Positions 5,915-33,358 of a DNA stretch of 64,000 bases are shown here, piece by piece. Location of the stretch: contig CAMJNS010000003.1 of the NCBI GenBank assembly GCA_946407375.1, positions 15,170 through 79,169 on the forward strand, read 5' to 3'. Position numbers and translations under genes: made by a program. Below the pieces are notes generated by a model. That model was not told where the DNA came from. It searched no databases and saw only the letters and a program-made list of their open reading frames with translations. The stretch is from an uncultured bacterium. Its GTDB lineage: Bacteria; Muiribacteriota; Ozemobacteria; Ozemobacterales; Ozemobacteraceae. Position 1 is the stretch's first letter, and each line of letters begins with the position of its first letter.

Positions 5915-6118
5915 ATTTTAGCTTCTATTGGCGTAATATTTTTTGTTTATTTGTTATAAATACATTCACTACTTTGGTTATTATTACTTAATTCCAACAT
6001 AAATAATATAAAATCATAGTTAACAACTTAATAAATTATTCAAAGAAAGTTTTTCATGGTCTTAGAAAGACTTATAATAAAGTTAACTATCTTTTATATA
6101 TTTATAAGGAGAATTAAA

Positions 6119-6880
6119 ATGGTAGAGGAACTTCTATTTACAAAAATTGTTGATAAATCGACTCTTTATGAAGGAATAAGCATTCCTGTTGCTTATCAGA
6201 AATTTCTTTTAAGTAAAATGCATTTCTCCTTAGAAAAAGGTAGTCAGAAAAATATTAAAGTGGAAATGTGTGGATATATTTACGATGATGCTGTTATAAA
6301 GAATCAATTTTTTGATGAAGTGAAATTTCCAAATCACTCAGATTTAATACAGATTCGTTATGCTAAGCAAAGTTTACTTGCCCAAAAAATACGTGAAGTT
6401 TTTTCTGTAACAGAATATTTCGTTAATGAGTATTGGAAAAATCAAGCGGATAATAAATCACACCTTGTTATACCTGAAGACAGAAGAGAATACATTGCTT
6501 TATATGTATCAAAAGATAGAATTCGATTTGATTGTATTCCACGTAATTTAACAATAAATACTCAGTCAAAAACTGATTTTGGTGAGGAAGCACCTCAAAG
6601 AAGAGAAACAACGACTTTGGGGTTCAAAAGAAATGCAAACGTTATCGAAAAAGCAAAAGAACGTGCTTCAGGAATTTGTCAATTGTGTGGTAATCTAGCT
6701 CCTTTTTGTGATAAACAGGGATATCCATATTTGGAAGTACATCATGTAATATGGCTTTCACGTGGAGGTGCTGATAAATTAAGCAATGTAGTTGCTTTAT
6801 GTCCAAATTGCCATTCGAAAATGCATATCGTCGATGATGAACAAGATATAGCACTTTTACTAGAAAAAGCTAAGCTATAA
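6119..6880 (+). CDS. HNH endonuclease (McrA-like C-terminus) with an uncharacterised N-terminal domain
   Basis: C-terminal CQLCG...PYLEVHHVIWLSRGGADKLSNVVALCPNCHSKMH is a CxxC/HH/N/CxxCH HNH motif. Start moved to the ATG at 6119, which has AAGGAG 7 nt upstream. The N-terminal FTKIVDKSTLYEGISIPVAYQKF resembles the opening of B3/EcoRII-N pseudobarrels (weak). Confidence 0.8.
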   Translation: MVEELLFTKIVDKSTLYEGISIPVAYQKFLLSKMHFSLEKGSQKNIKVEMCGYIYDDAVIKNQFFDEVKFPNHSDLIQIRYAKQSLLAQKIREVFSVTEYFVNEYWKNQADNKSHLVIPEDRREYIALYVSKDRIRFDCIPRNLTINTQSKTDFGEEAPQRRETTTLGFKRNANVIEKAKERASGICQLCGNLAPFCDKQGYPYLEVHHVIWLSRGGADKLSNVVALCPNCHSKMHIVDDEQDIALLLEKAKL

Positions 6881-6976
6881 TATAATTCATACAGTAATTT
6901 GCTATAGAAACAATTGTTGATTTATAATCGTATTAATTCTAAAGTAATACATAAAATAAATAAGAGCTTCTGTAAT

Positions 6977-8431
6977 ATGAACTATGACGAACTAGTAAAT
7001 CTAAGACAAATGAATGTCGCTTGGATTTTGCTTCGAGCTGATAATGCCCCATTAATAATAAGTTTTCTACACAAAACTTTTATAGAGCCAAATAAAAGAG
7101 ATATAGCCAAAAACATATTAGAAAATTTACTTGAAGATGAGTTGTTCAAATTAAGAGATAGAAATCAGGATCTTTTTCCTAAAAAAGCGTCTGAATACAT
7201 TACAGATTGGCAAAAAAGTGGCTATTTAAGGAATTTTTATGTTGATAACGACGATGAGCCTCATTATGATATTTCCGCAAAGGCAGAAAAAGCCATTCAA
7301 TGGATAGACGATTTAATATCTAAAAAATTCGTAGGTACTGAATCGCGTTTAAGAACTATTTTCAGTTTAGTTGAACAAATAGTTATTGGATCTGATAGAA
7401 ACAAAGAAAATCGTTTAGAAAATTTGGAAAAGCAAAAACAAACTCTTGAAGCTGAAATAGAGAAATTGAAGGCTGGAAATGTATCTATTTTAAGCGATAG
7501 TGAAATTAAAGACAGATTTCAGCAGGTTATTTCTTTGTCTAATATGATGTTAAGCGATTTTAGAGAAGTTGAAGATAATTTTAGAAAACTAGACCAAGCC
7601 ACACGAGAAAAAATAGCAACCAGTGATGGTGCCAAAGGAGAAGTTCTAGAAACTCAATTCAAAGATTTTGATTACATTGAGTCAACCGATGAAGGAAAAA
7701 GCTTTAAAGCCTTTATGCAATTTATTATGTCGCAAGATAAAATAGACGATTTCGATGAAAAATTGGCTAAAATACTTGAAATGAAACAGATTAAAGAGCT
7801 CAAACCAGATAAAAAAATTGCTAAAATATATCGAAATTGGCAGAAAGCTGGAGAATCAACTCAAAAAATGGTTATAAAACTTACTCAAAGACTAAGTAGG
7901 TATGTAAGCCAAAATATATCATCCCAAAACAAAAGTATTGAGCGACTTATAAAAAGAATAGAAAACATGGCAATAAAACTTAAAACAATTGCTAATAACG
8001 ACAAAAATTACATGGATATAGATAAAGCAGGAATTGAATTATCTATGCCAATGGAATTACCTCTTTGGACTTCTTCTGAAAAGCCAAATATTGTTTCAGA
8101 CATTGAAATTGGCTTAGAAAATGACATAGATGATAGTGCCCTATATAATCAAGTCTTTGTAGATAAGCAATCCATAATAGATAATATTCGTAAAGCACTG
8201 AATTTAAATGAACAAACAACTTTAGGACAGGTTATAAATAATAATCCGTTAAATAAAGGTTTAATGGAGTTAATAAGCTATTTTAGCGTTGCAAGTGAAA
8301 TGCAAAACAACCGGCAAATTAATATAATTTGTGATGATTCAAGTAAAGAAGAAATAAAATGGTTAGATGAAAGTTTGCAAGCAATTCGAGTTGCCAAAAT
8401 TCCAAAAATAACAATAAGCTACGAGAAATAA
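6977..8431 (+). CDS. jetA: Wadjet JetA (kleisin-like subunit, DUF3375-type)
   Basis: N-terminal MNVAWILLRADNAPLIISFLHKTF matches the conserved JetA opening as I recall it. ~484 aa with a central coiled coil. First of four contiguous genes with JetABCD sizes and order. Confidence 0.8.
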   Translation: MNYDELVNLRQMNVAWILLRADNAPLIISFLHKTFIEPNKRDIAKNILENLLEDELFKLRDRNQDLFPKKASEYITDWQKSGYLRNFYVDNDDEPHYDISAKAEKAIQWIDDLISKKFVGTESRLRTIFSLVEQIVIGSDRNKENRLENLEKQKQTLEAEIEKLKAGNVSILSDSEIKDRFQQVISLSNMMLSDFREVEDNFRKLDQATREKIATSDGAKGEVLETQFKDFDYIESTDEGKSFKAFMQFIMSQDKIDDFDEKLAKILEMKQIKELKPDKKIAKIYRNWQKAGESTQKMVIKLTQRLSRYVSQNISSQNKSIERLIKRIENMAIKLKTIANNDKNYMDIDKAGIELSMPMELPLWTSSEKPNIVSDIEIGLENDIDDSALYNQVFVDKQSIIDNIRKALNLNEQTTLGQVINNNPLNKGLMELISYFSVASEMQNNRQINIICDDSSKEEIKWLDESLQAIRVAKIPKITISYEK

Positions 8432-8432
8432 A

Positions 8433-9056
8433 ATGACTATATCTGAAGAAGAAAAAAATAATTATAACTTTTCCAAAATACTTATAAACCTTATGAAAGG
8501 TATTGTTTATAGAGAAGATGATGTAAATATTTGGAATTATTTAGAAGATAATGAATCTCAAGTTTCTGAACACTTTAAAATAATTGGTTTACGGCTAATT
8601 ATTGATAAATCAAGAGGTTACGCTTATTTAAAGCAAATCTTATTTAACCTGGAAGAGGAACAACTGCCCAGATTAATAAGGAAACAACCTCTAAGTAGAC
8701 AAGTATCAATATTAATTGTTGTTTTACGGCAAATTGTTATAGAAAAAGAAAACTCAGGTAGTGATGATAGAATCATTGTTTCTTTTGATGATATAGCAGA
8801 TAAATATAGAGCGTTTTATCCAAATAGCAATGATGATGAAAAAAAATTCTATAAAGATTTAAAATCATATTTAAAGAAGGTTATAGATTTAGATTTTATT
8901 AGAGAATTAAAAAGTGAAGAAGATAATTATGAAATAAAACCAATAATAGTATCATTTGTAGATATGGATTGGCTTAACAATTTCAAGGACAGGTTAACAG
9001 ATGAATTGAGAGAAAACAATATAGATATTGCTGATGAAAATGAGGATTTAGAATGA
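8433..9056 (+). CDS. jetB: Wadjet JetB (KITE-like subunit, DUF4194-type)
   Basis: 207 aa acidic protein. Starts 1 nt after the jetA stop and overlaps jetC by 4 bp. Size and position fit JetB. Confidence 0.7.
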   Translation: MTISEEEKNNYNFSKILINLMKGIVYREDDVNIWNYLEDNESQVSEHFKIIGLRLIIDKSRGYAYLKQILFNLEEEQLPRLIRKQPLSRQVSILIVVLRQIVIEKENSGSDDRIIVSFDDIADKYRAFYPNSNDDEKKFYKDLKSYLKKVIDLDFIRELKSEEDNYEIKPIIVSFVDMDWLNNFKDRLTDELRENNIDIADENEDLE

Positions 9057-12000
9057 ATTACGAACAAAGCTTTTTAGAATTTGCAACAGATAATTCAACA
9101 ACAGGTTTTAGACTAGATCGTTTAGAAATACTTAATTGGGGAACTTTCGACCAAAAAGTCTGGTCTCTTTATCCCTCAAGCAGAAATATTCTAGTTACTG
9201 GTGAAATTGGTTCAGGAAAATCAACAATAGCAGATGCAATTAGTACTTTGCTTGTTCCTCCACAGTGGTTGTCTTTTAATAAAGCCGCAGGAGCAGAAAG
9301 AAGAGAGAGAGATTTAAAGTCTTATGTTTTAGGTTTCTATAAAACAGAATCTGCTGATAGTGGTCTAATAGGTAAACCAGTAGCTTTACGTGATATAAAT
9401 TCATATTCTGTAATATTGGGAGTTTTTAAAAATTCAGGATACAATCAAGTTTATACGCTAGCACAAGTTTTTGTAGCCAAACCAGAAGGTGGGCAACCTG
9501 AAAGATTTTATTTTATTTCAAGTTCAGATTTATCAATTAAAAATGATTTTTCAGGCTTTGGAAATGAAATCAAAGCATTAAAATCAAGATTAAGAAAAAT
9601 ACCTGATTCAAAAATTTATGATACTTTTCTACAATACGCTAACGATTTTAAAAGATATTTTGGAATAGATAATAATCAGGCTTTGGGTTTATTTAATCAA
9701 ACAATTTCAATGAAGTCTGTTGGAAATCTTACGTCTTTTATTCGCGAAAATATGCTTCAAGAATATGAAACGAATGAAGAAGTAAATGCAATGATTCAGA
9801 ATTACGAACAGCTTTCAAAAGCTCATGACGAAATTCTTAAAGCCAATGATCAGATAGAAATCTTAAAGAAAATATCTAATATTGGTCAAGAATGTAGCAA
9901 ATTTGAAAAAGAAATAAATGATACTGAAAATAAATTAGATGCTTTACATTCTTATATGCTAGTAAACAAAGTTTCTTTTGTAGAAAAAGAAATTAATAGA
10001 TTAAATAATGAAAAAGAAAATGTTGATCAAGAATTAAATAAATTAAAAGAAGATGAAACAAACTATAATAGTCAAGTAACAGAAATAACTACTAATATAG
10101 TTTTAAATGGTGGCAATGAGATTACAGAAATAGAAAATAAAATAAAAACTCAAGAAAAAGAACTAAATAAACGCAAAAGAAATGAGGAAGAATATAAATC
10201 TATTTTAGCTATGACAGATTTAATATTCCCCATTGATATAGCAAGTTTTGAAAATAACAAACGTCAAATTGAAACAATAAGAAATTATACAAAATCAGAA
10301 TATTCTATAAAAAATGAAGAAAAATTTAGCAAAAAGCTTAATATTCAGGTATTAAAAAACAATAAAAAACAAATAGATGATGAAATAAATTCATTAAAAG
10401 GGCGTATAAACAATATTCCACTAGAACAAATAAAGATAAGAAGTTTAATTTGTACTAAAACAGGTTTGTTAGATGATGAATTACCATTTGTTGGAGAGCT
10501 TATTCAGGTAAAAGAAAGCGAAAAAGCATGGCAAGGAGCTATTGAGCGAGTCCTTCATGGTTTTGGGTTATCTCTATTAGTATCTGATTCTGTATATTCT
10601 AAAGTATCCAAAGCTGTTGATGAAACAAATCTTAAAGGTAAAATTGTTTATTTCAGAGTAAAAAACTTGGAAAACAGAATAAGTAACTATAATATTTCAC
10701 CAAATTCTATGGTTAGGAAAATAAAGGTAAAGCCAGATTGTTGGGCTTATGATTGGTTGCAAAATGAATTAGAAGAAAGATTTAATTATATATGTTGTGA
10801 AAACTTAGAATTATTCCAAAAAGAAAAATATGCAGTTACAATAAATGGTCAGGTTAAACATGGTGGAGTAAAGCATGAAAAAGACGATAGAAAAGCAATT
10901 AACGATATTTCTACTTATATTTTAGGCTGGAATAATAAAGAAAAAATATTAAATTTAAAAGCTGAATCTGATAAAATTCAAGAAGAAATAAATTCTTTAT
11001 TATCTGAAATAAAATTACTAGATAATAGATTAAAATTATTAGAACTTAAAGACAATAAATTGCATGAACATATAAAATATAGTAGCTATGAAAATATAGA
11101 CTGGAAAAGCATTGATTTAGAAATAAAAGAGTTACAAGAAAGATTAGAAGAGCTACATAAATCTTCTGACAAACTTAATAAGCTAAGAGAACAAAAAACA
11201 AAGCTAGAAGAAAAAATAAATGAGATAAAAGTTATAATTAATACAAAAACTAAGAAACAAGGCGGAATTGAAAATAAAATAAGCGAATTAAATAAAATAT
11301 TAAACAAATCTAGTGATGAAATAAATTCTAATAATGACTTCCCCAAGACAGAATATTTAGAAAGTTGTTTAAGTGAAATAATAAATGATATTAAAGAAAT
11401 ATCATCATTAGAAGAGTTTGATAGACAAGAAAGAATTTTAAACAAAAAATTTAATGATTTGAAATCAAATCTTCAAAAGGATTTTAGTGATAAAAAGAAT
11501 ATATTAGTCAAAGAAATGAGTGTATTTAAAAATAAATATGTCTTAGAATCAGCAGAACTGGGGCAAGAATATCAATATCTTTCTGATTACAATAAATTCC
11601 TTTTAAGGCTACAAAATGATGATTTGCCTAGATTTGAAACAAGATTTAAAGATTTACTGCATCAACAAACAATTCAAGGAATTGCTTCCTTTAATTCAAA
11701 GTTAAACAGAGATTCTGAAGAAATAAAAGATAGAATTAGAGCTATAAATGAGTCGTTAAAAGAAATTCAGTATAATGAAGGTCGTTATATAAGAATTGAA
11801 GTTATTTCTAATAATGACAAAGAAATAAATGATTATAAAAGCGATTTACGAAATTGCACAAACAATTCATTAAATTTTTCTGATGACGAATATTATAATG
11901 AACAAAGATTTGAAGCCGTTAAAGTAATTATAGACAGATTAAAAGGTCGAGAAGGCTTTATTGATGCAGATAAAAAATGGCGTTTAAAAGTTACTGACGT

Positions 12001-12433
12001 TAGAAATTGGTTTAATTTTGCTGCTTCTGAAAGATATAAGTCTGATGACAGTCAGGCAGAATATTACAATGATTCTACAGGAAAATCCGGAGGACAAAAA
12101 GAAAAGCTTGCATATACTATATTGGCGGCGGGATTAGCTTACCAATTTGGTTTAAGAAAAATAGGCGAAACCAAATCAAGAAGTTTTAGGTTTGTTGTAA
12201 TTGATGAAGCTTTTGGTCGTGGAAGTGAAGAATCAGCCCGCTTTGGATTAGAACTTTTCAAAAAACTGGATTTACAGATAATGGTTATAACACCTTTGCA
12301 AAAAATACACGTCATAGAGCCATATATAGACAATGTGGGTTTTGTGGCTATCAGCGACAACAGGTCTAGAATTCGTAATTTAAGTATAGAGCAATATAAA
12401 GAAGAATATAATGAAAGAACTACAAAACAGTAA
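9053..12433 (+). CDS. jetC: Wadjet JetC (SMC-like ATPase)
   Basis: 1126 aa. N-terminal Walker A GEIGSGKST, a very long K/E/N-rich coiled-coil middle, then C-terminal signature SGGQKEKLAYTILAAGL and Walker B FRFVVIDEAFGRGS. Confidence 0.9.
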   Translation: MNYEQSFLEFATDNSTTGFRLDRLEILNWGTFDQKVWSLYPSSRNILVTGEIGSGKSTIADAISTLLVPPQWLSFNKAAGAERRERDLKSYVLGFYKTESADSGLIGKPVALRDINSYSVILGVFKNSGYNQVYTLAQVFVAKPEGGQPERFYFISSSDLSIKNDFSGFGNEIKALKSRLRKIPDSKIYDTFLQYANDFKRYFGIDNNQALGLFNQTISMKSVGNLTSFIRENMLQEYETNEEVNAMIQNYEQLSKAHDEILKANDQIEILKKISNIGQECSKFEKEINDTENKLDALHSYMLVNKVSFVEKEINRLNNEKENVDQELNKLKEDETNYNSQVTEITTNIVLNGGNEITEIENKIKTQEKELNKRKRNEEEYKSILAMTDLIFPIDIASFENNKRQIETIRNYTKSEYSIKNEEKFSKKLNIQVLKNNKKQIDDEINSLKGRINNIPLEQIKIRSLICTKTGLLDDELPFVGELIQVKESEKAWQGAIERVLHGFGLSLLVSDSVYSKVSKAVDETNLKGKIVYFRVKNLENRISNYNISPNSMVRKIKVKPDCWAYDWLQNELEERFNYICCENLELFQKEKYAVTINGQVKHGGVKHEKDDRKAINDISTYILGWNNKEKILNLKAESDKIQEEINSLLSEIKLLDNRLKLLELKDNKLHEHIKYSSYENIDWKSIDLEIKELQERLEELHKSSDKLNKLREQKTKLEEKINEIKVIINTKTKKQGGIENKISELNKILNKSSDEINSNNDFPKTEYLESCLSEIINDIKEISSLEEFDRQERILNKKFNDLKSNLQKDFSDKKNILVKEMSVFKNKYVLESAELGQEYQYLSDYNKFLLRLQNDDLPRFETRFKDLLHQQTIQGIASFNSKLNRDSEEIKDRIRAINESLKEIQYNEGRYIRIEVISNNDKEINDYKSDLRNCTNNSLNFSDDEYYNEQRFEAVKVIIDRLKGREGFIDADKKWRLKVTDVRNWFNFAASERYKSDDSQAEYYNDSTGKSGGQKEKLAYTILAAGLAYQFGLRKIGETKSRSFRFVVIDEAFGRGSEESARFGLELFKKLDLQIMVITPLQKIHVIEPYIDNVGFVAISDNRSRIRNLSIEQYKEEYNERTTKQ

Positions 12434-13616
12434 AGACATAAAAGAAGAACTTAATAAAGTTTGGAATAAAGGCTTGATTTTGTGTCAAAAATTAAGCATT
12501 AACAAAGATCAAAGAGTCATAGAATTTCCTTATAAAATAAGACTTAGACAGCCTGCATCAAAAGATAGAGCTGATATTTCAAATTATAATACAATTAAAG
12601 ATTGGTGCAAGCACTGGAAAGATCAATATGATTTATTTGGCAAGCAAAAACTTAATATAAGCATTGAATATATGCCGATTAATGACAGAATTTTAGGGAA
12701 ACAGGAACTTCCTGCGTATATTGTGGTAAATGATATAAATAGCTTCATACATTATATAAAAAAAGAAAAAGAGATTAAACAATTTGAAGAAATAGTAACG
12801 GTTATTTTTGATGAATGTTCTAATCTCCTTAATTTAATGAATGATAAGCCTTTCGATTTTTTGAAATACGATTCAAAAGAATGGCACAAAATTATACAAG
12901 TATCTGTTTGGATAGCTAACAATCCAAATCCAAATATTTATTTAAGAGAATTGGAAATTCCTAATGTTGATACAAAATTTATAGAAAAGCATGATGGAAT
13001 TTTGAAAAAAGTAATAAATTTTCTTCTTAACAAAGATGAAAAAGATTTTGCTACGAATAATTTTGAAGTACGCTATGGATTCAAAAGAAAGCCTGTAACA
13101 GTTCATTTTCGTATTCTTGACAAAGATTTAGCTATAAATGGCTTAACGGATTTAGAAATCCCTATTGAGGATTTTGCTAGATTAAATATTTCTGTCAAAA
13201 AAGCATTTATAATAGAAAACAAGATTACAGGGTTGTCTTTCCCAAATGTAAAATCAGCAATAGTTATTTTTGGTCTTGGTTTTGGGCTAGATAGACTTAA
13301 AAAATGCGGTTGGCTGAATAATTTGGAATTATATTATTGGGGTGACTTAGATACAAACGGTTTTGTTATGCTAGACCAGTTCCGTTCTTATTTTCCAAAA
13401 GCCAAATCAATGCTAATGACTTCAGAAATTGTTAAAGAGCACAAAGATATGTGGGTTAAAGAGGAAAAACAATCTATTAGAGAGTTAACTCATTTAACAG
13501 CTGATGAAGCAAATACCTACAAAGAATTAAAAGAAAACAAACACACCAACAATTTACGCTTAGAACAAGAACGAATTAATTTTTCTTTTGTAAAAGAATT
13601 TTTAAATAGTCTATAA
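12411..13616 (+). CDS. jetD: Wadjet JetD (Toprim/topo-VI-like nuclease subunit)
   Basis: 401 aa and overlaps jetC by 23 bp. C-terminal YYWGDLDTNGFVMLDQFR is a Toprim DxD motif, as in JetD/MksG. Confidence 0.8.
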   Translation: MKELQNSKDIKEELNKVWNKGLILCQKLSINKDQRVIEFPYKIRLRQPASKDRADISNYNTIKDWCKHWKDQYDLFGKQKLNISIEYMPINDRILGKQELPAYIVVNDINSFIHYIKKEKEIKQFEEIVTVIFDECSNLLNLMNDKPFDFLKYDSKEWHKIIQVSVWIANNPNPNIYLRELEIPNVDTKFIEKHDGILKKVINFLLNKDEKDFATNNFEVRYGFKRKPVTVHFRILDKDLAINGLTDLEIPIEDFARLNISVKKAFIIENKITGLSFPNVKSAIVIFGLGFGLDRLKKCGWLNNLELYYWGDLDTNGFVMLDQFRSYFPKAKSMLMTSEIVKEHKDMWVKEEKQSIRELTHLTADEANTYKELKENKHTNNLRLEQERINFSFVKEFLNSL

Positions 13617-21579: not shown

Positions 21580-22977
21580 ATGTTAAATTATTATCAGCTT
21601 TTAGGCGTTCCAAACTTTGCTGCTCAAGACGAAATAGCCACAGCTTATAAAAACAAATATAACGAATTATTCTCTTCTGATTCACCATTGGCAAACATTC
21701 CGAAACTAAAGCAATTAAAACAAGCTTTAGATATTTTATCTGACGAAGATCAGAGAGAAACTTACGACCAGGAACTAGGCGAATTTCTAGAACTAGTAAA
21801 TGAACAGTATGAAGAAGCTGTTTACGATTTAGAAAATAGAGATTTGGATTCTTCTGCTGAAAAATTGACCTGGTGCATGACTCAAAACCCAAACGAACCA
21901 GACTATTACGAAACAATGGGATTAGTTTGTCGGTTACAGGGTGATTTGAAAAATTCCCTTAGATTTTACAAACAAGGGTTAGAAACTGGGCAGAGAAAGG
22001 GCTTCTTCCATCGTTATTTAGGCGATATATATGCATTAATGCACGAAGATGAAAAATCTGAAGAACAGTATATTATTGCTGCAGAAGAATTTAGAAAGCT
22101 TCTTAAAGTTGACCCTAAAAATGTTGAAGCAATGGAACAACTTGGTGATATTTACCGCCATATGAAGTTTTTTGAAGAAGCTTTGGATACTTATCAGCAA
22201 TTACTTAAGCGTTATCCTTATAATGCTGCATTCCATCGTGAAGCAGGAAGTATTATGTCTGAAATGGATATGCTTGGAGAAGCTGAAAGTCATCTAATAG
22301 AAGCACTGAGAATTAAGCCGAGCAATGCTCCATCACTTATGGAACTTGGATTAGTTTACTTCAAAAAACGATTACTCGGTATGGCTGTTCAGACTTTCCA
22401 AGATTGCTTAAAAGCTGATCCAAACCAACCAGAAGTAAGACAATTGATTACGCAGATTGAATCTGTTCGTAAAGAAATAGGTCAAACAGTAGAAGAAATG
22501 ACTTACGATCCTGCTCCTGATGCTTATGTTGAAGGAACTGTAAAGTGGTATAACAAAGAGTCTGGTATGGGAGTTGCTACTTGCGAAAGTTTTCCTGATG
22601 TTCTTTTGCACTATACTGCTATAAAAAATGAAAAGGACATTGATTTAAAAAAGGGCGATGCTATACGATTTGGTGTAGTTAAAGACAAAATGAGTCCAGT
22701 AGCCGTAGAAGTTGAAAAAATTGGCACACCATCTGAATCTGAAGTTCTTCCTGGAAAAATAACTAAATTTGATACAGATAAAAAACTTGGTTTAATAAAA
22801 GGTGCTGATGGAAGCGATGTCTTTTTCCCGTTTTCTGCTTTAACAGAAGAAACTCTTAATTCTCTTGAAGTTGGGCTGGATGTTCTTTATGAAACAAAGA
22901 GCATTGTCGGATTAGATGATAATGCAGCTTCACAAGCAATAAGAGTTAGACTCAGAAAGAAGAAAACAGCTAAGTAA
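21580..22977 (+). CDS. J-like domain / TPR repeats / two cold-shock-like (CSD/OB) domains fusion protein
   Basis: N-terminal NYYQLLGVPNFAAQDEIATAYK...LSDEDQRETYD is J-domain-like but has no HPD tripeptide. The middle carries TPR repeats. C-terminal GTVKWYNKESGMGVA and GKITKFDTDKKLGLIKG are CSD-like. Confidence 0.65.
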   Translation: MLNYYQLLGVPNFAAQDEIATAYKNKYNELFSSDSPLANIPKLKQLKQALDILSDEDQRETYDQELGEFLELVNEQYEEAVYDLENRDLDSSAEKLTWCMTQNPNEPDYYETMGLVCRLQGDLKNSLRFYKQGLETGQRKGFFHRYLGDIYALMHEDEKSEEQYIIAAEEFRKLLKVDPKNVEAMEQLGDIYRHMKFFEEALDTYQQLLKRYPYNAAFHREAGSIMSEMDMLGEAESHLIEALRIKPSNAPSLMELGLVYFKKRLLGMAVQTFQDCLKADPNQPEVRQLITQIESVRKEIGQTVEEMTYDPAPDAYVEGTVKWYNKESGMGVATCESFPDVLLHYTAIKNEKDIDLKKGDAIRFGVVKDKMSPVAVEVEKIGTPSESEVLPGKITKFDTDKKLGLIKGADGSDVFFPFSALTEETLNSLEVGLDVLYETKSIVGLDDNAASQAIRVRLRKKKTAK

Positions 22978-23624: not shown

Positions 23625-24620
23625 TTAACAACAAAGTTTTAAATAGTTTTGCCACTTTTTATCTGGTAGCTGTTTGATTTTTACCTTGGTTAGCTCAACT
23701 TTATCCGGCGTAATTCCTGTATATAGAATAATACCTCTAATCATTTCTTTACGAAGCATTTCGGCGGTTTCTTCATCATAATCATAGTTTAAATCAGAGA
23801 AGAGTTCATCGACCATTTTCAAGGTTTCATTCAAAAGTTCGTTTTTTATAAAATTGTATTCATCCGATGTGAGTTCTGGCTGTTCTTTACAAACTTCATC
23901 AAAGCTTAACCAAGGCATTTCTGCAAGCAAAGAACGACTTTTCATGCGAATGTCACTACGATGGTCAAAAAGACACATTGCACAAATACCATCTTTTGAG
24001 CGTGTAACGTTGGCTCTGCATATTTTACATAAGGTATAGCCTTTTTCTTCTAATCCTTTAAGTCTAGCACTAAGCTTTTGCTGGCATTGGTCTAATGTTT
24101 TGGCAAGTTCTGGATTATTAACTTTTGGTTTTTCTGTGATTTCTTCTTCTTTCCAGTCTGGCCAAGCGGCTTCTTTTACTAGTTTTACAACAGATGCTGG
24201 TATTTTACCGATTCTTCCTATTATATCTTTTATTTTTAAGTCGGGAAAAAGCTGTCCGAGTTTTTGTATTATTCCTGATTTGAGAAAGAGCAATGTTTGC
24301 ATCCATTGACTATCTGAAACAGTTAAATACAATGTGTTTTTGAATAGTTTTAAAGGGCAGGTTTTAGAAGCAAGCTGAATTCCTACAACATCTCGCCAAG
24401 AATTAATTAAACGACCTAAGGTAACTAATTCTTTTGCTGCAAGATTGTGCTTGTAATCACTCTCAGGAGTTCCTTCATTGTTGAAGCAAGCTTTTCTCAT
24501 GCTGGCAATGGTTTTTACTAGACTGAAAGATATTGGTTTTTTACCAACACCAATACGTTTTTTTGAGTTGTAGGTTCTAGAATAAGTCATTTTTGTTGCT
24601 ATAATAAGGATTTCTTGCAA
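23625..24620 (-). CDS. DUF721 (DciA-like) domain protein with central Zn-ribbon
   Basis: WRDVVGIQLASKTCPLKLFKNTLYLTVSDSQWMQTL is DUF721-like. CKIC...CAMC is a four-Cys ribbon. Start uncertain: TTG at 24620 or ATG at 24590. Confidence 0.45.
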   Translation of the reverse strand: MQEILIIATKMTYSRTYNSKKRIGVGKKPISFSLVKTIASMRKACFNNEGTPESDYKHNLAAKELVTLGRLINSWRDVVGIQLASKTCPLKLFKNTLYLTVSDSQWMQTLLFLKSGIIQKLGQLFPDLKIKDIIGRIGKIPASVVKLVKEAAWPDWKEEEITEKPKVNNPELAKTLDQCQQKLSARLKGLEEKGYTLCKICRANVTRSKDGICAMCLFDHRSDIRMKSRSLLAEMPWLSFDEVCKEQPELTSDEYNFIKNELLNETLKMVDELFSDLNYDYDEETAEMLRKEMIRGIILYTGITPDKVELTKVKIKQLPDKKWQNYLKLCC

Positions 24621-28340: not shown

Positions 28341-30032
28341 TTAAATTGATATGCCACCATTAGTTGGAGCAGAGTCTGAAAATTCAACACCACCAAAAAT
28401 GTTGTTTTTGATATAGTTGTATCTCTCTATATCCATTGTATAGATAAACAAACCATCTCTTGTCTTGTATATATCGTTTCCGTTGCTATCTTTGGTTATT
28501 ATGCCACCCATTATATAAAAGCCTACTGATTCGGCCATATCTTCGTAAGGAGCGGTTCTTGCATAACTACTAGGTGGAACGCCATCTGTCTTTATTTGGG
28601 TTTCATTTTTCCAGAATTTTTCTTGCCAAGCAGCAATAACATCATTTCCTTTTGCCTGCTGTGAATGCTGATAACAATGTGTCATTTCATGAGCTACTGT
28701 TTGAGCAAAAGAATATTCTAGTTTAGATTTTAATCTTGATTCTGTTAATAATATATCAGGATTATTATCTTGTATTTGATTTATTTCTGATTGAGTCAAA
28801 TAAGTAGCTCTATCTAAGAGATGTATTTTTGTTTCATTATTGTTTACATAAGCGGCAACATCGTTTTTGTCTTGAACTGTTTGGGTTTGCATATCATCAG
28901 GGCAAGCCGATTCTCTGATTATTTCTGTTGTGGAATGTAAAAATTCCTTAGCTTCTTCAGAGTTTGCTTCATTAAGTTTTGACAAAACTTGATCAATCAT
29001 TTGGAGCTGTCTAACAGTAAATGCATTGTCTCCGTCAGTGCATTTTATACCATAAAGGCTACTGATTCTTGCTTTTAAATCATCTTCTGTTTCTTCAGAA
29101 ACAGAAGTGTTTGTACCTGTATTAGTATTTGTTCCTGTTGAACTTCCTGTATCTACATCTGTATCGACTGAGGTTTGACTACCAGTATTGCTTCCCGTAT
29201 TGGAACCTGTGTCAGAACCAGTGCTAGAACCAGTATTTGTGTTGGTGTCGTCATCGTCATCAGTGTCTGTATTTGTTGCAGAACCAGTGCTACTACCAGT
29301 ATCCGTATCGGTGTCATCATCGTCATCTGTGTCTGTGCTTGTTGCGGAACCAGTGCTGCTTCCAGTATCTGTATCCGAACTAGTAGCAGAGCCAGTATCT
29401 GAACTGGTGTCTGTGTCGTCTCCAGAATCTGTTCCGGTATTTGTATCTGTGCTTGAAGATGAACCGGTATCTGTATTGGAACCAGTATCTGTATCGGTGT
29501 TAGTTGATGAACCAGTGCTACTTCCGGTATCGGTGCTAGAGCCTGTGTCTGAACTTGTACTAGAACCAGTATCAGTATTAGTAGGTGTTGCAGTATCTGA
29601 AGAACCATCAAGATTAATAAGAGTAAAAGAAGAAGTATCAATATTTACACCCATATTCATTCCAATAAGAATACGAGTCATATTGGTGAATACTTCGTTT
29701 ACATGGGACAATTCATTGTTTTGGTCATTTGGTTGTTCACCATCTTGTTGTGTTTCTGGAGGATCATCACTGATTGTTACTGAAGAATCTGGGTCAGTAA
29801 AAATAATTGGAGTTCCTTCGTCTTCGCCAGGGGTATCTTTAGCTTCTGTGGTTACTTCTGCTGCTTTGAAATCAGAAGAAATGGCTTTATCTGAACCTTC
29901 AACAGCTTGGTAAATTGTATCAAGATAACTTCCGCTCTGAGCCATTGAAGAAAATGGTATAGAAAGGCAGAAGAAAATAGCTACTAATAAGCTCAAAATA
30001 GATTTTTTTGTTAATTGTTGTTTTCTTTTCAT
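28341..30032 (-). CDS. Secreted S/T/D/G-repeat protein with C-terminal HExxH (zincin-like) domain
   Basis: Signal peptide, ~165 aa of TDTGSSTGS-type low complexity, then VAHEMTHCYQH with a downstream EDMAES, which is gluzincin-like and resembles the DUF4157 motif from memory. Confidence 0.6.
   Translation of the reverse strand: MKRKQQLTKKSILSLLVAIFFCLSIPFSSMAQSGSYLDTIYQAVEGSDKAISSDFKAAEVTTEAKDTPGEDEGTPIIFTDPDSSVTISDDPPETQQDGEQPNDQNNELSHVNEVFTNMTRILIGMNMGVNIDTSSFTLINLDGSSDTATPTNTDTGSSTSSDTGSSTDTGSSTGSSTNTDTDTGSNTDTGSSSSTDTNTGTDSGDDTDTSSDTGSATSSDTDTGSSTGSATSTDTDDDDDTDTDTGSSTGSATNTDTDDDDDTNTNTGSSTGSDTGSNTGSNTGSQTSVDTDVDTGSSTGTNTNTGTNTSVSEETEDDLKARISSLYGIKCTDGDNAFTVRQLQMIDQVLSKLNEANSEEAKEFLHSTTEIIRESACPDDMQTQTVQDKNDVAAYVNNNETKIHLLDRATYLTQSEINQIQDNNPDILLTESRLKSKLEYSFAQTVAHEMTHCYQHSQQAKGNDVIAAWQEKFWKNETQIKTDGVPPSSYARTAPYEDMAESVGFYIMGGIITKDSNGNDIYKTRDGLFIYTMDIERYNYIKNNIFGGVEFSDSAPTNGGISI
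29096..29594 (-). repeat. Coding low-complexity tandem repeats
   Basis: Reiterated units such as ggaaccagtgct(a/g)ct(a/t)ccagtatc(c/t)gtatc and gtcatcatcgtcatc. One ~66-bp unit is duplicated around 29215-29345. Confidence 0.8.
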
Positions 30033-30194: not shown

Positions 30195-31859
30195 ATGAGT
30201 ATACAAAAGAAACGTTTAGGCGATATCCTAATAGATTGTAATCTAATTAACGAAGATCAGTTAAAAGAAGCTTTAACTTTCCAGCGTGAGCACGGGTTAA
30301 AGCTAGGCGAAGCCCTTTCCCAAATGGGCTTAGTAACAGAGGATGATATTATTTGGGCATTGGGTAACCAACTGAATATATCTTTTATTCACTTAAGCCC
30401 AGATATTGTTAATCCTGAAGTTGTTAAACTTATTTCAGCTGACTTTGCTCGTGAAAACAGATTAATGCCTTTGTATAAAGCAGGGTCTGATTTTAGTGTT
30501 TGTATGGTCGACCCGTTAGATTCTCGACCTATAGAGTATCTTGAAGGCAAATTTGGAGCAGTTGCACAGATTTCAATTTGTACAGCTTACGATTTTGAAC
30601 AAACTTTCAATGCTATTTATGGCCCGCTTGATGTTTCCAATACTGGAGAAGTTGAAGCTAGTACAACTGATGCTGAAACAAAACAAATGGAACAGGGCAT
30701 TCCAAAAGGAATGGAAAGCTCTGAAAAAATAATTAATTATATCCTTAGTCAAGCAATTCTAAATAAAGTTGATAGAATTCATTTTGAACCATCAGATAAG
30801 GGTGTTCTTATTCGTTTCAGATCTAATAATGTTCTCAACAGAAAAATAGAAATACCTGTCAAGGTTCATCACGATGTAATATCTCGTCTTAAAAAGCTTT
30901 CTCAGCTTTCTGAAAAAGATATGTCTAGAGAAGGCGGTGTTTTAGTCGGCCATTTTAAAGTTAATGTGCAAGGAAGACAGATTAATATACAATCTATTTT
31001 CTACCCGACAGTAAATGGCGAAATGGTTATATTGCATCTAAACGATATAGCTGCTTTGGTTGAACATATTTCTCGTTCTGGAAAAGATGCTATAGAAAAT
31101 GTTTTAAATACCGTTAAAACTACCCATGGTATTTTGTATGTAAGTGGTCCAAGAGAATCAGGTAGAACAACTACTCAGTATTGTATTATTAGTAGTTATG
31201 ACCCAGAAAAATGTAAACTTGTAACAATTGAAGATCCAGTTATTTCTACATTGGCAAATATAACTCAGCTTCAAATCGGTTCCGGAGACATTGTTTCTGC
31301 CATTGATGGTTTGAGACTTTCTTTAATGTTAGATGCCGACGTTATTTACGTAGATAAAACTGATAATAAACAATTGTTAGAAGAATTATGTTATGCTGCT
31401 CTTGGTGGAAAGACAATATTGACAGGCGTTTTAGCTTATGATGCTTCTAGTAGCATTATTAAACTTTTAGAAACAGGCGTTGATCCTGTTATTATGGCTT
31501 CTTCTCTTTGTGGTTTTGTGAACCAGCGTTTGGTTAGAATGCTTTGTCCAAATTGCAAAAAAGAAGCTCAAATTCCTAAAGAAATAGAAGAGTTAATTCC
31601 TGAACAGCAACGAAATACTGTTATTTATAAGGCTTGTGGTTGTGAATCTTGTAATCAAACAGGTTATATAGGCAAGGCTTTGGTTACAGAATTTATTCCT
31701 GCAACAGCAAGATTGAGACAAATGATAATAAACAAAGAGTCTTATCTTGATTTCTCTAATTTTGCTCGTAAACAAGGAATTAAGAGTATAGAACAAGAAA
31801 CTCTTGAACTTGTTTTAAAGGGAATAACAACTGCTGATGAATTTATGAGGCTGTTTTAA
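30195..31859 (+). CDS. GspE/PilB-family secretion-ATPase homolog with degenerate catalytic motifs
   Basis: N-terminal T2SSE_N-like domain (LGDILIDCNLINEDQLKEAL...) and a C-terminal CPNC...CESC zinc motif. Walker A reads GPRESGRT, Walker B DADVIYVDKTDN, and the His box is lost (TGVLAYDAS). Start taken at the ATG at 30195. Confidence 0.8.
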   Translation: MSIQKKRLGDILIDCNLINEDQLKEALTFQREHGLKLGEALSQMGLVTEDDIIWALGNQLNISFIHLSPDIVNPEVVKLISADFARENRLMPLYKAGSDFSVCMVDPLDSRPIEYLEGKFGAVAQISICTAYDFEQTFNAIYGPLDVSNTGEVEASTTDAETKQMEQGIPKGMESSEKIINYILSQAILNKVDRIHFEPSDKGVLIRFRSNNVLNRKIEIPVKVHHDVISRLKKLSQLSEKDMSREGGVLVGHFKVNVQGRQINIQSIFYPTVNGEMVILHLNDIAALVEHISRSGKDAIENVLNTVKTTHGILYVSGPRESGRTTTQYCIISSYDPEKCKLVTIEDPVISTLANITQLQIGSGDIVSAIDGLRLSLMLDADVIYVDKTDNKQLLEELCYAALGGKTILTGVLAYDASSSIIKLLETGVDPVIMASSLCGFVNQRLVRMLCPNCKKEAQIPKEIEELIPEQQRNTVIYKACGCESCNQTGYIGKALVTEFIPATARLRQMIINKESYLDFSNFARKQGIKSIEQETLELVLKGITTADEFMRLF

Positions 31860-31862
31860 TCT

Positions 31863-33293
31863 ATGGCAGATAATTTTTTTGGAAAACTATTTGGTGGGGA
31901 TGACAACAAAAAGCCCACAACACCTGCAAGTGCTCCTAAACCGGTTCAACCGGCAACAATGCCTCCACGACCGATAAATCCTGCTATATCAAATTATCAG
32001 CCGCCTAGGCAACAACCTGCTGCGAGACCTGTTCCTCAACAGCAAGTTCCACCTCAAAGGCCTCCTACTCCTTCTCCGATGCCTCCTAGACCAACTCCTC
32101 AGAGACCTCCTTTACAACAAGATCCTTTAGGAGGATTAGCTAGTAATTCTGGCGGAGGGTTTAGATCAAATTCTCAATCGTCTAGTGGCTCTATAATAAG
32201 TAGTGGTCATTCTGATGTTCAAGAAGGCGAACTCACTATTGATGATCTTTTGAAGTTGATTGTTGATAAGGCTGGTTCAGACCTTCATTTAACAGTTGGT
32301 TCTCCGCCAATGTTAAGACTTCAAGGTAAGTTATGGCCAACTGATTTACCTCCATTAACTCCAAAAGAAATTCGTCGTCTTGTTTATAACTTTTTAACTA
32401 ATGATCAGCGTGAAAAGCTCGAACAAGATTTAGAATTGGATATTTCATATGAACTAAAAGGTGTAGCTCGTTATAGATGTAATATCTTTTTTACGAGATT
32501 GGGTATGGGAGCTGTATTCCGTGTTATTCCAACACGTATCAAATCTCTTTCAGAATTACGTCTTCCAATGGTTCTTGGTGATTTGGCTCGCCGAAATAAA
32601 GGTTTAATACTTGTTACCGGTCCTACTGGTTCTGGTAAATCAACTACCTTGGCGGCAATGGTTGATCAGATTAACAACGAACGTCAAGACCATATTTTAA
32701 CTATTGAAGACCCAATAGAATTTGTTCATCAACACAAACAATGTATTGTTAATCAGCGTGAAATTGGTCCGAATACAAAATCTTTCGCAAATGCATTACG
32801 TTCAGCATTGCGTGAAGACCCAGATATTATACTAGTCGGCGAAATGCGTGACTATGAAACAATTTCATTGGCTGTTACCGCTGCTGAAACAGGTCACTTG
32901 GTCTTTGCTACTTTGCATACTCCATCAGCAGCTCAGTCTGTAGACCGTATCGTTGACGTTTTCCCTGCTCACCAGCAGGCACAGATTAGAACACAGCTTG
33001 CAGATGCTTTGCAAGGTATTATTGCTCAACAGCTTATTCCTACTATTGATGGACAGCGCCGTGAATGTGCTCTTGAAATAATGATTAACACACCGGCTGT
33101 TGCTAACCTGATTCGTGATAATAAAACATTCCAGTTAACTTCTATTATGCAGACTAGTAAACAACAGGGTATGCAGACTATGGACCAGGCTTTGATGGAC
33201 TTGGTAAAATCAAGAAAGATTAGTCCTCAAGAAGCTTATAGAAGAGCTTTGGATAAAAAGGCATTTGAACAATACAAACCTAGAGACTATTAA
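31863..33293 (+). CDS. pilT: PilT-type retraction ATPase with ~120-aa P/Q-rich N-terminal extension
   Basis: Canonical GPTGSGKSTT, TIEDPIEF, REDPDIILVGEMRD and TGHLVFATLHT motifs. The N-terminus is proline/glutamine-rich low complexity. Confidence 0.9.
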   Translation: MADNFFGKLFGGDDNKKPTTPASAPKPVQPATMPPRPINPAISNYQPPRQQPAARPVPQQQVPPQRPPTPSPMPPRPTPQRPPLQQDPLGGLASNSGGGFRSNSQSSSGSIISSGHSDVQEGELTIDDLLKLIVDKAGSDLHLTVGSPPMLRLQGKLWPTDLPPLTPKEIRRLVYNFLTNDQREKLEQDLELDISYELKGVARYRCNIFFTRLGMGAVFRVIPTRIKSLSELRLPMVLGDLARRNKGLILVTGPTGSGKSTTLAAMVDQINNERQDHILTIEDPIEFVHQHKQCIVNQREIGPNTKSFANALRSALREDPDIILVGEMRDYETISLAVTAAETGHLVFATLHTPSAAQSVDRIVDVFPAHQQAQIRTQLADALQGIIAQQLIPTIDGQRRECALEIMINTPAVANLIRDNKTFQLTSIMQTSKQQGMQTMDQALMDLVKSRKISPQEAYRRALDKKAFEQYKPRDY

Positions 33294-33325
33294 TAGACTA
33301 TTTATAATTTAAGCTTTAAGTCTTA

Positions 33326-33358
33326 AACCCGTTTAGATAAAAATCTAAGCGGGTTTTT
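33326..33358 (+). terminator. Intrinsic terminator after pilT
   Basis: aaacccgtttaga/tctaagcgggttt stem with one U-G pair, followed by ttttt. Confidence 0.7.

Follow-up and report, generated by a model that had tools for sequence, protein, structure and literature searches.

A PilB-like putative pseudo-ATPase paired with PilT in Riflebacteria, a candidate c-di-GMP receptor for the retraction of type IV pili

Described relatives of the locus

How the type IV pilus is switched between extension and retraction, and how cyclic di-GMP (c-di-GMP) feeds into this choice, is an open question, and the known c-di-GMP inputs (MshE, PilF and FimX–PilZ) act on the extension motor. Here, we analyse a pair of genes found in a 64-kb stretch (hereafter “the window”) of contig CAMJNS010000003.1, which belongs to an uncultured Ozemobacteraceae bacterium. 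The first gene (30195–31859, + strand) encodes a 554-residue protein of the PilB/GspE family in which all catalytic motifs have been replaced, as seen from the translation of its open reading frame (ORF) and from Pfam, NCBIfam, HMMER and AlphaFold2 analyses; we refer to it as pseudo-PilB. The second gene (31863–33293, + strand) encodes an intact retraction ATPase of the PilT family, 476 residues long. We regard it as likely that pseudo-PilB is a c-di-GMP-sensing pseudo-ATPase, i.e., a non-catalytic PilB paralogue regulating PilT or the motor exchange at the type IV pilus, in which case it would be a candidate receptor on the retraction side.

Like MshE of Vibrio cholerae (MshEN, 5HTL) and the GSPII domains of Thermus thermophilus PilF, pseudo-PilB has an N-terminal four-helix bundle in which two motifs of 24 residues are set 5 residues apart, and this bundle is joined to a PilB-type N2D and C-terminal domain (CTD) with a tetra-Cys site. 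However, the Walker A and B motifs, Asp boxes and His boxes that are intact in the active ATPases MshE and PilF are all replaced in pseudo-PilB, and mshE is part of the MSHA pilus operon, whereas pseudo-PilB is paired with pilT only. With PilB itself (Myxococcus xanthus, 3jc8; Geobacter, 5tsg, 5tsh and 5zfr), pseudo-PilB shares the domain order, the fold (TM score of 0.84 over N2D–CTD) and the Asn at position 10 of motif I, and the order pilB–pilT is typical of many pilus operons, but the identity is only 28–31%, the catalytic residues and the arginine fingers are missing, and no pilC follows its pilT.

The nearest published counterpart of the pair is found in Geobacter sulfurreducens, where the PilB/MshE-like gene mshE (GSU0435) immediately precedes pilT3 (GSU0436), which encodes a PilT paralogue, at a site away from the main pilus locus, an arrangement conserved among Geobacter species (PMC5065972). 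MshE and PilT3 are both reported as highly expressed. Speers et al. (2016) suggested that they function in a coordinated way, but they took MshE as a presumed ATPase and did not discuss any motif degeneracy, and PilT3, by their description, has no proline-rich N-extension (PMC5065972). From a functional perspective, the role proposed here is analogous to that of FimX in the FimX–PilZ–PilB system of Xanthomonas and Pseudomonas (PMC8389850, PMC5595344), a catalytically degenerate c-di-GMP receptor acting on a pilus motor ATPase. Yet FimX is a degenerate GGDEF–EAL protein and not a motor paralogue, it targets PilB and not PilT, and it has no sequence relationship with pseudo-PilB. Finally, M. xanthus PilB signals to the Dif pathway independently of hydrolysis and pilus assembly, its nucleotide-free form being the signalling state (Black et al. 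2017, PMC5544727). This protein combines a PilB fold and MshEN motifs with conformation-dependent, hydrolysis-independent signalling (PMC5544727), but it is also a working motor, whereas in the case of pseudo-PilB, signalling would have become the task of a separate, dedicated dead paralogue.

In the literature, we found no description of PilB-family pseudo-ATPases or of degenerate Walker motifs in PilB, and a 2024 review of PilB makes no mention of dead paralogues. The parts of the system are known (MshEN, the PilB fold and PilT), while what is new is a dedicated dead paralogue that has kept its sensor and is coupled to a PilT bearing a tethered peptide.

Domain architecture and catalytic motifs of pseudo-PilB

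The ATG at 30195 is the correct start of the gene, because every homologue opens with M..KKRLGD. The protein belongs to the T2SSE superfamily (Pfam PF00437: 193.6 bits for the full-length domain, cut-off 24.9), and its N-terminal part matches MshEN (PF05157: 42.2 bits, cut-off 23.1). Its best NCBIfam matches are GspE and PilB, both of them end to end, but with scores under half of the cut-offs: 271.9 vs. 630.25 for the GspE equivalog of the type II secretion system (TIGR02533) and 251.7 vs. 675.65 for the type IV-A PilB equivalog (TIGR02538). An AlphaFold2 model computed from an alignment of 29 family members reached a predicted local distance difference test score (pLDDT) of 83.7; the top Foldseek matches of this model are GspE 4pht and Geobacter PilB 5tsh, while the best PDB match of the protein is T. 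thermophilus PilF (6f8l). The MshEN domain (also GSPII or N1D) is complete and spans residues 1–144 (30195–30626, + strand), as delineated by Pfam and by the secondary structure of the model (pLDDT 70–90). It is followed by N2D at residues 176–300 (30720–31094, + strand; alignments and model), in which the arginine-finger motif ERRxPQDGR is missing, and by the CTD, in which the four cysteines of the zinc site (C451, C454, C483 and C486; 31545–31652, + strand) are retained and are invariant in 29 diverse family members. Together, these results show that pseudo-PilB keeps the architecture of PilB: MshEN/N1D, N2D, CTD and zinc site.

To place the catalytic motifs, we relied on HMMER alignments to the solved structures of T. 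thermophilus PilF (6f8l), M. xanthus PilB (3jc8) and Geobacter PilB (5zfr). At the position of Walker A, GPRESGRT (G318–T325; 31146–31169, + strand) stands opposite GPTGSGKT, so that the shape GxxxxG[RK]T is retained while the catalytic Lys of GxxxxGK[ST] is replaced by Arg, as in most Riflebacterial members (a few have Lys; the family consensus is GP[RH]ESG[RK]T). The Asp box reads EDPVI (E346–I350; 31230–31244, + strand) instead of EDPVE, the second Glu of EDPxE being lost. In the Walker B region, DADVIYVDKTDN (DADVIYVDKTDN, D380–N391; 31332–31367, + strand) is aligned with DPDIIMVGEIRD, and the pattern hhhhGE has become VIYVDK: the catalytic Glu is a Lys and the preceding Gly a nearly invariant Asp (D387), while the residue following D387, i.e., the position of the catalytic Glu, varies within the family. 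The His box, LGGKTILTGVLAYDAS (31401–31448, + strand), has lost both His residues, with GGKTILTGVLAYDA (G404–A417, GGKTILTGVLAYDA) facing the canonical TGHLVLSTLHTNDA and the His-less GGKTILTGVLAYD standing for TGHxxxSTxHT. Lastly, the arginine-finger motif E[RK]RxPQDGR of N2D is absent or variable across the family, and a variable segment, SEKDMSREGGV, takes its place.

A first-pass annotation of this DNA had reported Walker A, Walker B with its catalytic Glu, and the His box as degenerate, and had proposed an alignment to characterised PilB, GspE, PilT and PilU proteins as a check. In the structure alignments, the strings it had singled out lie exactly opposite the canonical motifs, and therefore these motifs were not mis-assigned; the loss of the arginine fingers comes in addition to those that it listed. 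The same annotation was right in considering the N-terminal T2SSE_N domain (the MshEN match above) and the C-terminal tetra-Cys motif as retained. From these alignments, we infer that pseudo-PilB is probably unable to hydrolyse ATP.

The putative sensor head is retained. In the published consensus, MshEN consists of two copies of (R/K/L)LGxx[LVI][LVI]xxG[LVI][LVI]xxxxLxxxLxxQ, 5 residues apart (PMC11731258), and pseudo-PilB has two such 24-residue motifs, R7–Q30 and K36–Q59, separated by the 5-residue spacer REHGL (30213–30371, + strand). Both copies are close to the consensus, and the NCBIfam model of the c-di-GMP motif (NF053729) matches residues 7–59 with 62.1 bits (cut-off 38). Position 10 of motif I is an Asn and not a Gly, as it is in the PilB of Geobacter and M. 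xanthus, whereas motif II of the window protein has a Ser at position 7, where the family consensus is Ile, and an Ile at position 17. Moreover, the alignment with V. cholerae MshEN (5HTL) requires no gaps. The idea of a possible c-di-GMP sensor, already put forward in the first-pass annotation, is thereby backed by the NF053729 score, by both motifs with their spacer and by the gap-free alignment, and we infer that the four-helix bundle of pseudo-PilB would bind c-di-GMP. Upstream of the gene, no riboswitch (for c-di-GMP or otherwise) reached the Rfam gathering score.

Conservation of the family and its pairing with PilT

About 93 homologues of pseudo-PilB (43–90% identity) were retrieved from 5.8 billion proteins, and those with a taxonomic name are nearly all from Candidatus Riflebacteria, Rifleibacteriota or Ozemobacteraceae, one of them being labelled Erysipelotrichia. 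Past this family, there is a gap in identity, after which ordinary PilB and GspE proteins appear at no more than 34%; in a profile search of 1.84 billion representatives, the score similarly drops from 766 to 507 bits at the edge of the family. Motifs were counted in an alignment of 91 of the ~93 homologues, where the replacements GP[RH]ESG[RK]TT, LDADxIYxD and LGGKTxLT are near-universal. In GTDB (one genome per species), the family occurs in 47 genomes, all of them Riflebacteria or metagenome-assembled genomes (MAGs) that are unnamed or evidently mislabelled, and the ORF is intact in every one. Furthermore, 83 columns are invariant across 29 sequences that are 44–69% identical to the window protein, and the ratio of nonsynonymous to synonymous substitution rates (dN/dS) between the window and its closest relatives (MAGs from rumen, goat gut and reindeer gut) amounts to 0.03–0.09 for pseudo-PilB and 0.02–0.04 for the core of PilT, these values being rough because dS is saturated.

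Selection is not evenly distributed along the protein. Within the family, the mean pairwise identity is 77% for the MshEN bundle, which is the most conserved segment, and 54% for the CTD/ATPase core, while canonical PilBs in the same alignment show 49% and 70%, respectively, the two sets differing in taxonomic breadth. The conservation profile of pseudo-PilB is inverted relative to that of working PilBs. These results show catalytic losses that have become fixed throughout Riflebacteria, under purifying selection.

The gene downstream starts 3 nt past the stop codon of pseudo-PilB (the junction reads TAA-TCT-ATG), and its product is a PilT/PilU-type ATPase with GPTGSGKS, EDPIE, DPDIILVGEMRD and TGHLVFATLHT all in place (TIGR01420: 491.3 bits, cut-off 319.1), which agrees with its initial description as an intact PilT. 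PilT lies directly downstream of pseudo-PilB in 41 of the 41 species loci with enough downstream DNA, the other 6 of the 47 loci ending at or just past the pseudo-PilB gene. By our own ORF calls, the gap between the two genes is 2–4 nt in most genomes and occasionally goes up to ~120 nt. The remaining neighbours of the pair vary, even if a HU gene is often found upstream and BipA often downstream. The absence of pilC, pilM-Q and gspF next to the pair, noted at the outset, extends to the whole window, where neither these genes nor a secretin domain were found in any ORF of at least 110 residues.

Across the phylum, the normal body of this PilT is preceded by a short peptide and a linker of ~100 residues. 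In the window, the peptide is MADNFFGKLFGGD (31863–31901, + strand; phylum-wide M(S/A)DN(D)FFGKLFGG), which is the sole occurrence of the motif in the window, and the linker is a proline- and glutamine-rich tether (31902–32222, + strand), variable in sequence and predicted to be disordered. The peptide resembles the C-terminal amphipathic helix by which MinD is targeted to the membrane (…FLKRLFGG), a likeness that we treat as a lead; its possible functions are membrane anchoring and docking. As a modelling device, both genes were also read as one artificial chain, with the TAA stop and the 3-nt spacer in frame (translation table 6 for TAA loci, table 4 for TGA loci), using a paired alignment of 15 rows; we do not claim any natural read-through. 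In this fusion model, the tether has a pLDDT of ~25–35.

Both genes are transcribed in the sheep gut. In a metatranscriptome from this environment (RNA-Seq, run X1), 94% of the words sampled from the two genes are present, and a single contig of 2915 nt runs across the gene junction without any mismatch (30374–33286, + strand). Its end coincides with the stop codon of PilT, the gene that lies divergently upstream is found on a separate contig, and the depth is zero past 33575. A terminator scan revealed a terminator-like hairpin with a 14-bp stem and a T run (33325–33356, + strand), which closes the two-gene operon, while a promoter scan of the sequence returned sites no more frequently than in shuffled sequence. 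These observations fit a two-gene transcript. DNA carry-over into the RNA library is possible, but the coincidence of contig ends with gene ends speaks against it.

Another PilB-like ATPase of Riflebacteria has kept every one of its motifs (P0110 type; L057 10001–11764; L006 676–2442) and is highly conserved, with 73–92% identity within the phylum. Named copies are those of Ca. Rifleibacterium amylolyticum and Ca. Ozemobacter sibiricus, both of which have pseudo-PilB too, and on one chromosome of 5.2 Mb, the intact copy is located at 2.35 Mb and pseudo-PilB at 0.70 Mb. The neighbours of the intact paralogue are always an MCP/PilZ-like protein, an unknown protein of 300 residues and a radical-SAM enzyme, and not pilC; this ATPase is an orphan motor. 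We had considered reading its LLG (for RLG) as a lost c-di-GMP motif, but rejected this, because the extended consensus admits Leu at the first position and even associates it with a higher affinity (PMC11731258).

Other PilB-like proteins have lost catalytic residues as well. Among the best profile matches and the relatives of one of them, we identified P0248/P0271, P0393, P0428, P0238, P0224, P0162 and others, which share the MshEN plus T2SSE architecture and the loss of the Walker A Lys, the catalytic Glu or the His box, but differ from the Riflebacterial family in their substitutions and in their genomic contexts. In a quick maximum-likelihood tree, most of these clades arose independently within canonical PilB clades, while P0248/P0271 is sister to the Riflebacterial clade (SH-like approximate likelihood ratio test, SH-aLRT: 96), though both have long stems and attraction is possible. 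P0271 shares the motif-I Cys and the “NWALGTQL” signature with the Riflebacterial family and is followed by PilT after a 2-nt gap; neither this PilT nor that of any other dead clade has the N-terminal extension. Most plausibly, the pair of pseudo-PilB and PilT descends from a duplicated pilB–pilT unit. The arrangements recorded in other lineages include a partly degenerate PilB-like gene at the pilB position of a full pilB–pilT–pilC–pilD–pilM operon (L054 1758–9455), a dead PilB-like gene after a canonical PilB and a response regulator (L055 153–4048), and a bare pair of pseudo-PilB and PilT (L056 3214–5906). Proteins P0130, P0132, P0133 and P0135, which rank high in the profile search, are PilB-like and ~1000 residues long, with a C-terminal extension of ~450 residues.

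Possible roles of the pair and other genes of the window

In the reading that we consider likely, c-di-GMP would be bound by the N-terminal MshEN four-helix bundle of pseudo-PilB, and the signal would be passed to the pilus motor system without ATP hydrolysis. Two routes can be envisaged: either pseudo-PilB binds or positions the PilT with which it is co-translated, or it takes the docking site of PilB on the PilM/PilC platform as an inert mimic of the motor, thereby biasing the pilus towards extension or retraction. The N-terminal peptide of PilT on its proline-rich tether would probably have a part in this, serving for membrane anchoring or for docking. The old nucleotide pocket may keep a role as well, as suggested by its strictly conserved loop, GPRESG(R/K)T, and by the acidic residue found where Walker B would be; nucleotide could be bound there without being hydrolysed, or the pocket could be self-filled and the protein “locked” in this conformation. 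A bolder version, which we hold to be rather unlikely, would have pseudo-PilB as a c-di-GMP-gated “motor mimic”, i.e., an inert PilB-shaped ring that replaces the extension motor on the PilM/PilC platform, where it would capture or release a co-translated PilT leashed by its FFGKLFGG peptide. If this were true, pilus retraction would be under the direct influence of the second messenger and, considering the other pairs of dead PilB and PilT in unrelated phyla, the motor itself would have given rise to a class of pilus regulators that is widespread and undescribed.

The first-pass annotation had already supposed a pseudo-ATPase, perhaps acting as a regulator or scaffold. The former notion fits the alignments, and the fixed substitutions, purifying selection, transcription and intact PilB-type ATPases of related genomes add to it; the latter is supported by the strict synteny and the translational coupling with PilT. 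Several points nonetheless weigh against our interpretation or limit it. The adjacency of the two genes could partly be inherited from the common operon order pilB–pilT–pilC instead of pointing to a direct interaction, and the evidence for a coexisting intact PilB comes from relatives of the source genome. Moreover, pseudo-PilB still has a P-loop of the shape GxxxxG[RK]T and an Asp at the position of Walker B, which makes nucleotide binding or even slow hydrolysis possible. Finally, the fusion model, by which we probed a contact of pseudo-PilB with the PilT peptide, is too low in confidence to speak for or against it (pLDDT 53.6; predicted template modelling score, pTM, 0.27), with the peptide as a short helix at a pLDDT of ~60.

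The nucleotide pocket leads to a first rival explanation, according to which pseudo-PilB would be a switch that binds nucleotides without hydrolysing them, the altered P-loop and the Asp at the Walker B position holding a nucleotide (ATP, ADP or a different one), and the main signal being this bound state and not c-di-GMP. Archaeal FlaH, which regulates FlaI, offers a comparison. That the P-loop shape is nearly invariant, that some members have a Lys there (GPRESGKT, GAHESGKT, GPGESGKT) and that D387 is nearly invariant too would be expected of such a switch, but the arginine fingers, the Glu of the Asp box and the His box, all of which contact the nucleotide in PilB, are gone, the Glu at position 4 of the P-loop may block the phosphate site, and the strongest selection bears on the MshEN bundle and not on the CTD. 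We thus see little chance of nucleotide being the main signal, even if such a switch is compatible with, and not exclusive of, c-di-GMP sensing as we propose it. Pseudo-PilB could also be thought of as a working extension or secretion ATPase (PilB or GspE) with non-canonical catalytic residues, given that it has lost neither the overall fold nor the zinc site nor the domains that form the hexamer, and that the best NCBIfam matches are GspE and PilB. This is very improbable, since five independent catalytic elements have been lost together, the equivalog scores are less than half of their cut-offs, intact paralogues exist in related genomes, and single changes at these motifs are already reported to abolish the function of PilB, PilT and PilU (Chiang et al. 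2008, as cited in PMC11656802). The degeneracy of the motifs, taken alone, might even evoke a decaying pseudogene or an annotation artefact, but this is ruled out by the 47 intact ORFs, the dN/dS of 0.03–0.09, the 83 invariant columns, the transcription and the confident fold.

A different objection concerns the output. Pseudo-PilB might respond to c-di-GMP and yet signal to something other than PilT, for instance to the control of exopolysaccharides or biofilms in a way akin to PilB–Dif of M. xanthus, in which case the linkage to pilT would be a relic of an ancestral pilB–pilT–pilC operon. In its favour, PilB is known to signal independently of ATP hydrolysis and pilus assembly (PMC5544727), the degenerate gene of L054 shows the ancestral order within a full pilB–pilT–pilC–pilD–pilM operon, and the window is devoid of other pilus genes (among ORFs of at least 110 residues). 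However, the two genes have stayed adjacent (mostly 2–4 nt apart) in all informative genomes of the phylum, whereas all other neighbours changed, and the pairing with PilT recurs in a second dead clade, which is more than expected of a relic; on balance, an output unrelated to PilT appears doubtful. A role of pseudo-PilB in regulating PilT or the motor exchange would exemplify a motor paralogue turned regulator (pseudoenzyme). It would also have a practical side: databases label the family as “PilB”, “GspE” and even “TadA” ATPases, so that active motors are overcounted in Riflebacteria and other phyla, and a correction is due.

Some other genes of the window deserve a brief comment. On the minus strand, 28341–30032 encodes a secreted protein of 563 residues with ~230 residues of repeats rich in Thr, Ser, Asp and Gly (e.g., DTGSST) and a C-terminal zincin-like motif, HEMTH; it has no Pfam match and is transcribed in the sheep-gut metatranscriptome as a contig of its own. 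A Wadjet/JetABCD-type cassette occupies 6056–13616, with DUF3375 (JetA), DUF4194/MksE (JetB), an SbcC-like ATPase (JetC) and JetD, and is preceded by an HNH endonuclease ORF. Further along, a protein of 465 residues unites a DnaJ domain, TPR repeats and two cold-shock domains (21580–22977, + strand), a DciA-domain protein of the helicase-loader type has a long C-terminal extension with Cys pairs (23625–24620, − strand), and a domain with a metallo-beta-lactamase fold is fused to a cyclic-nucleotide-binding domain (45868–48060, + strand).

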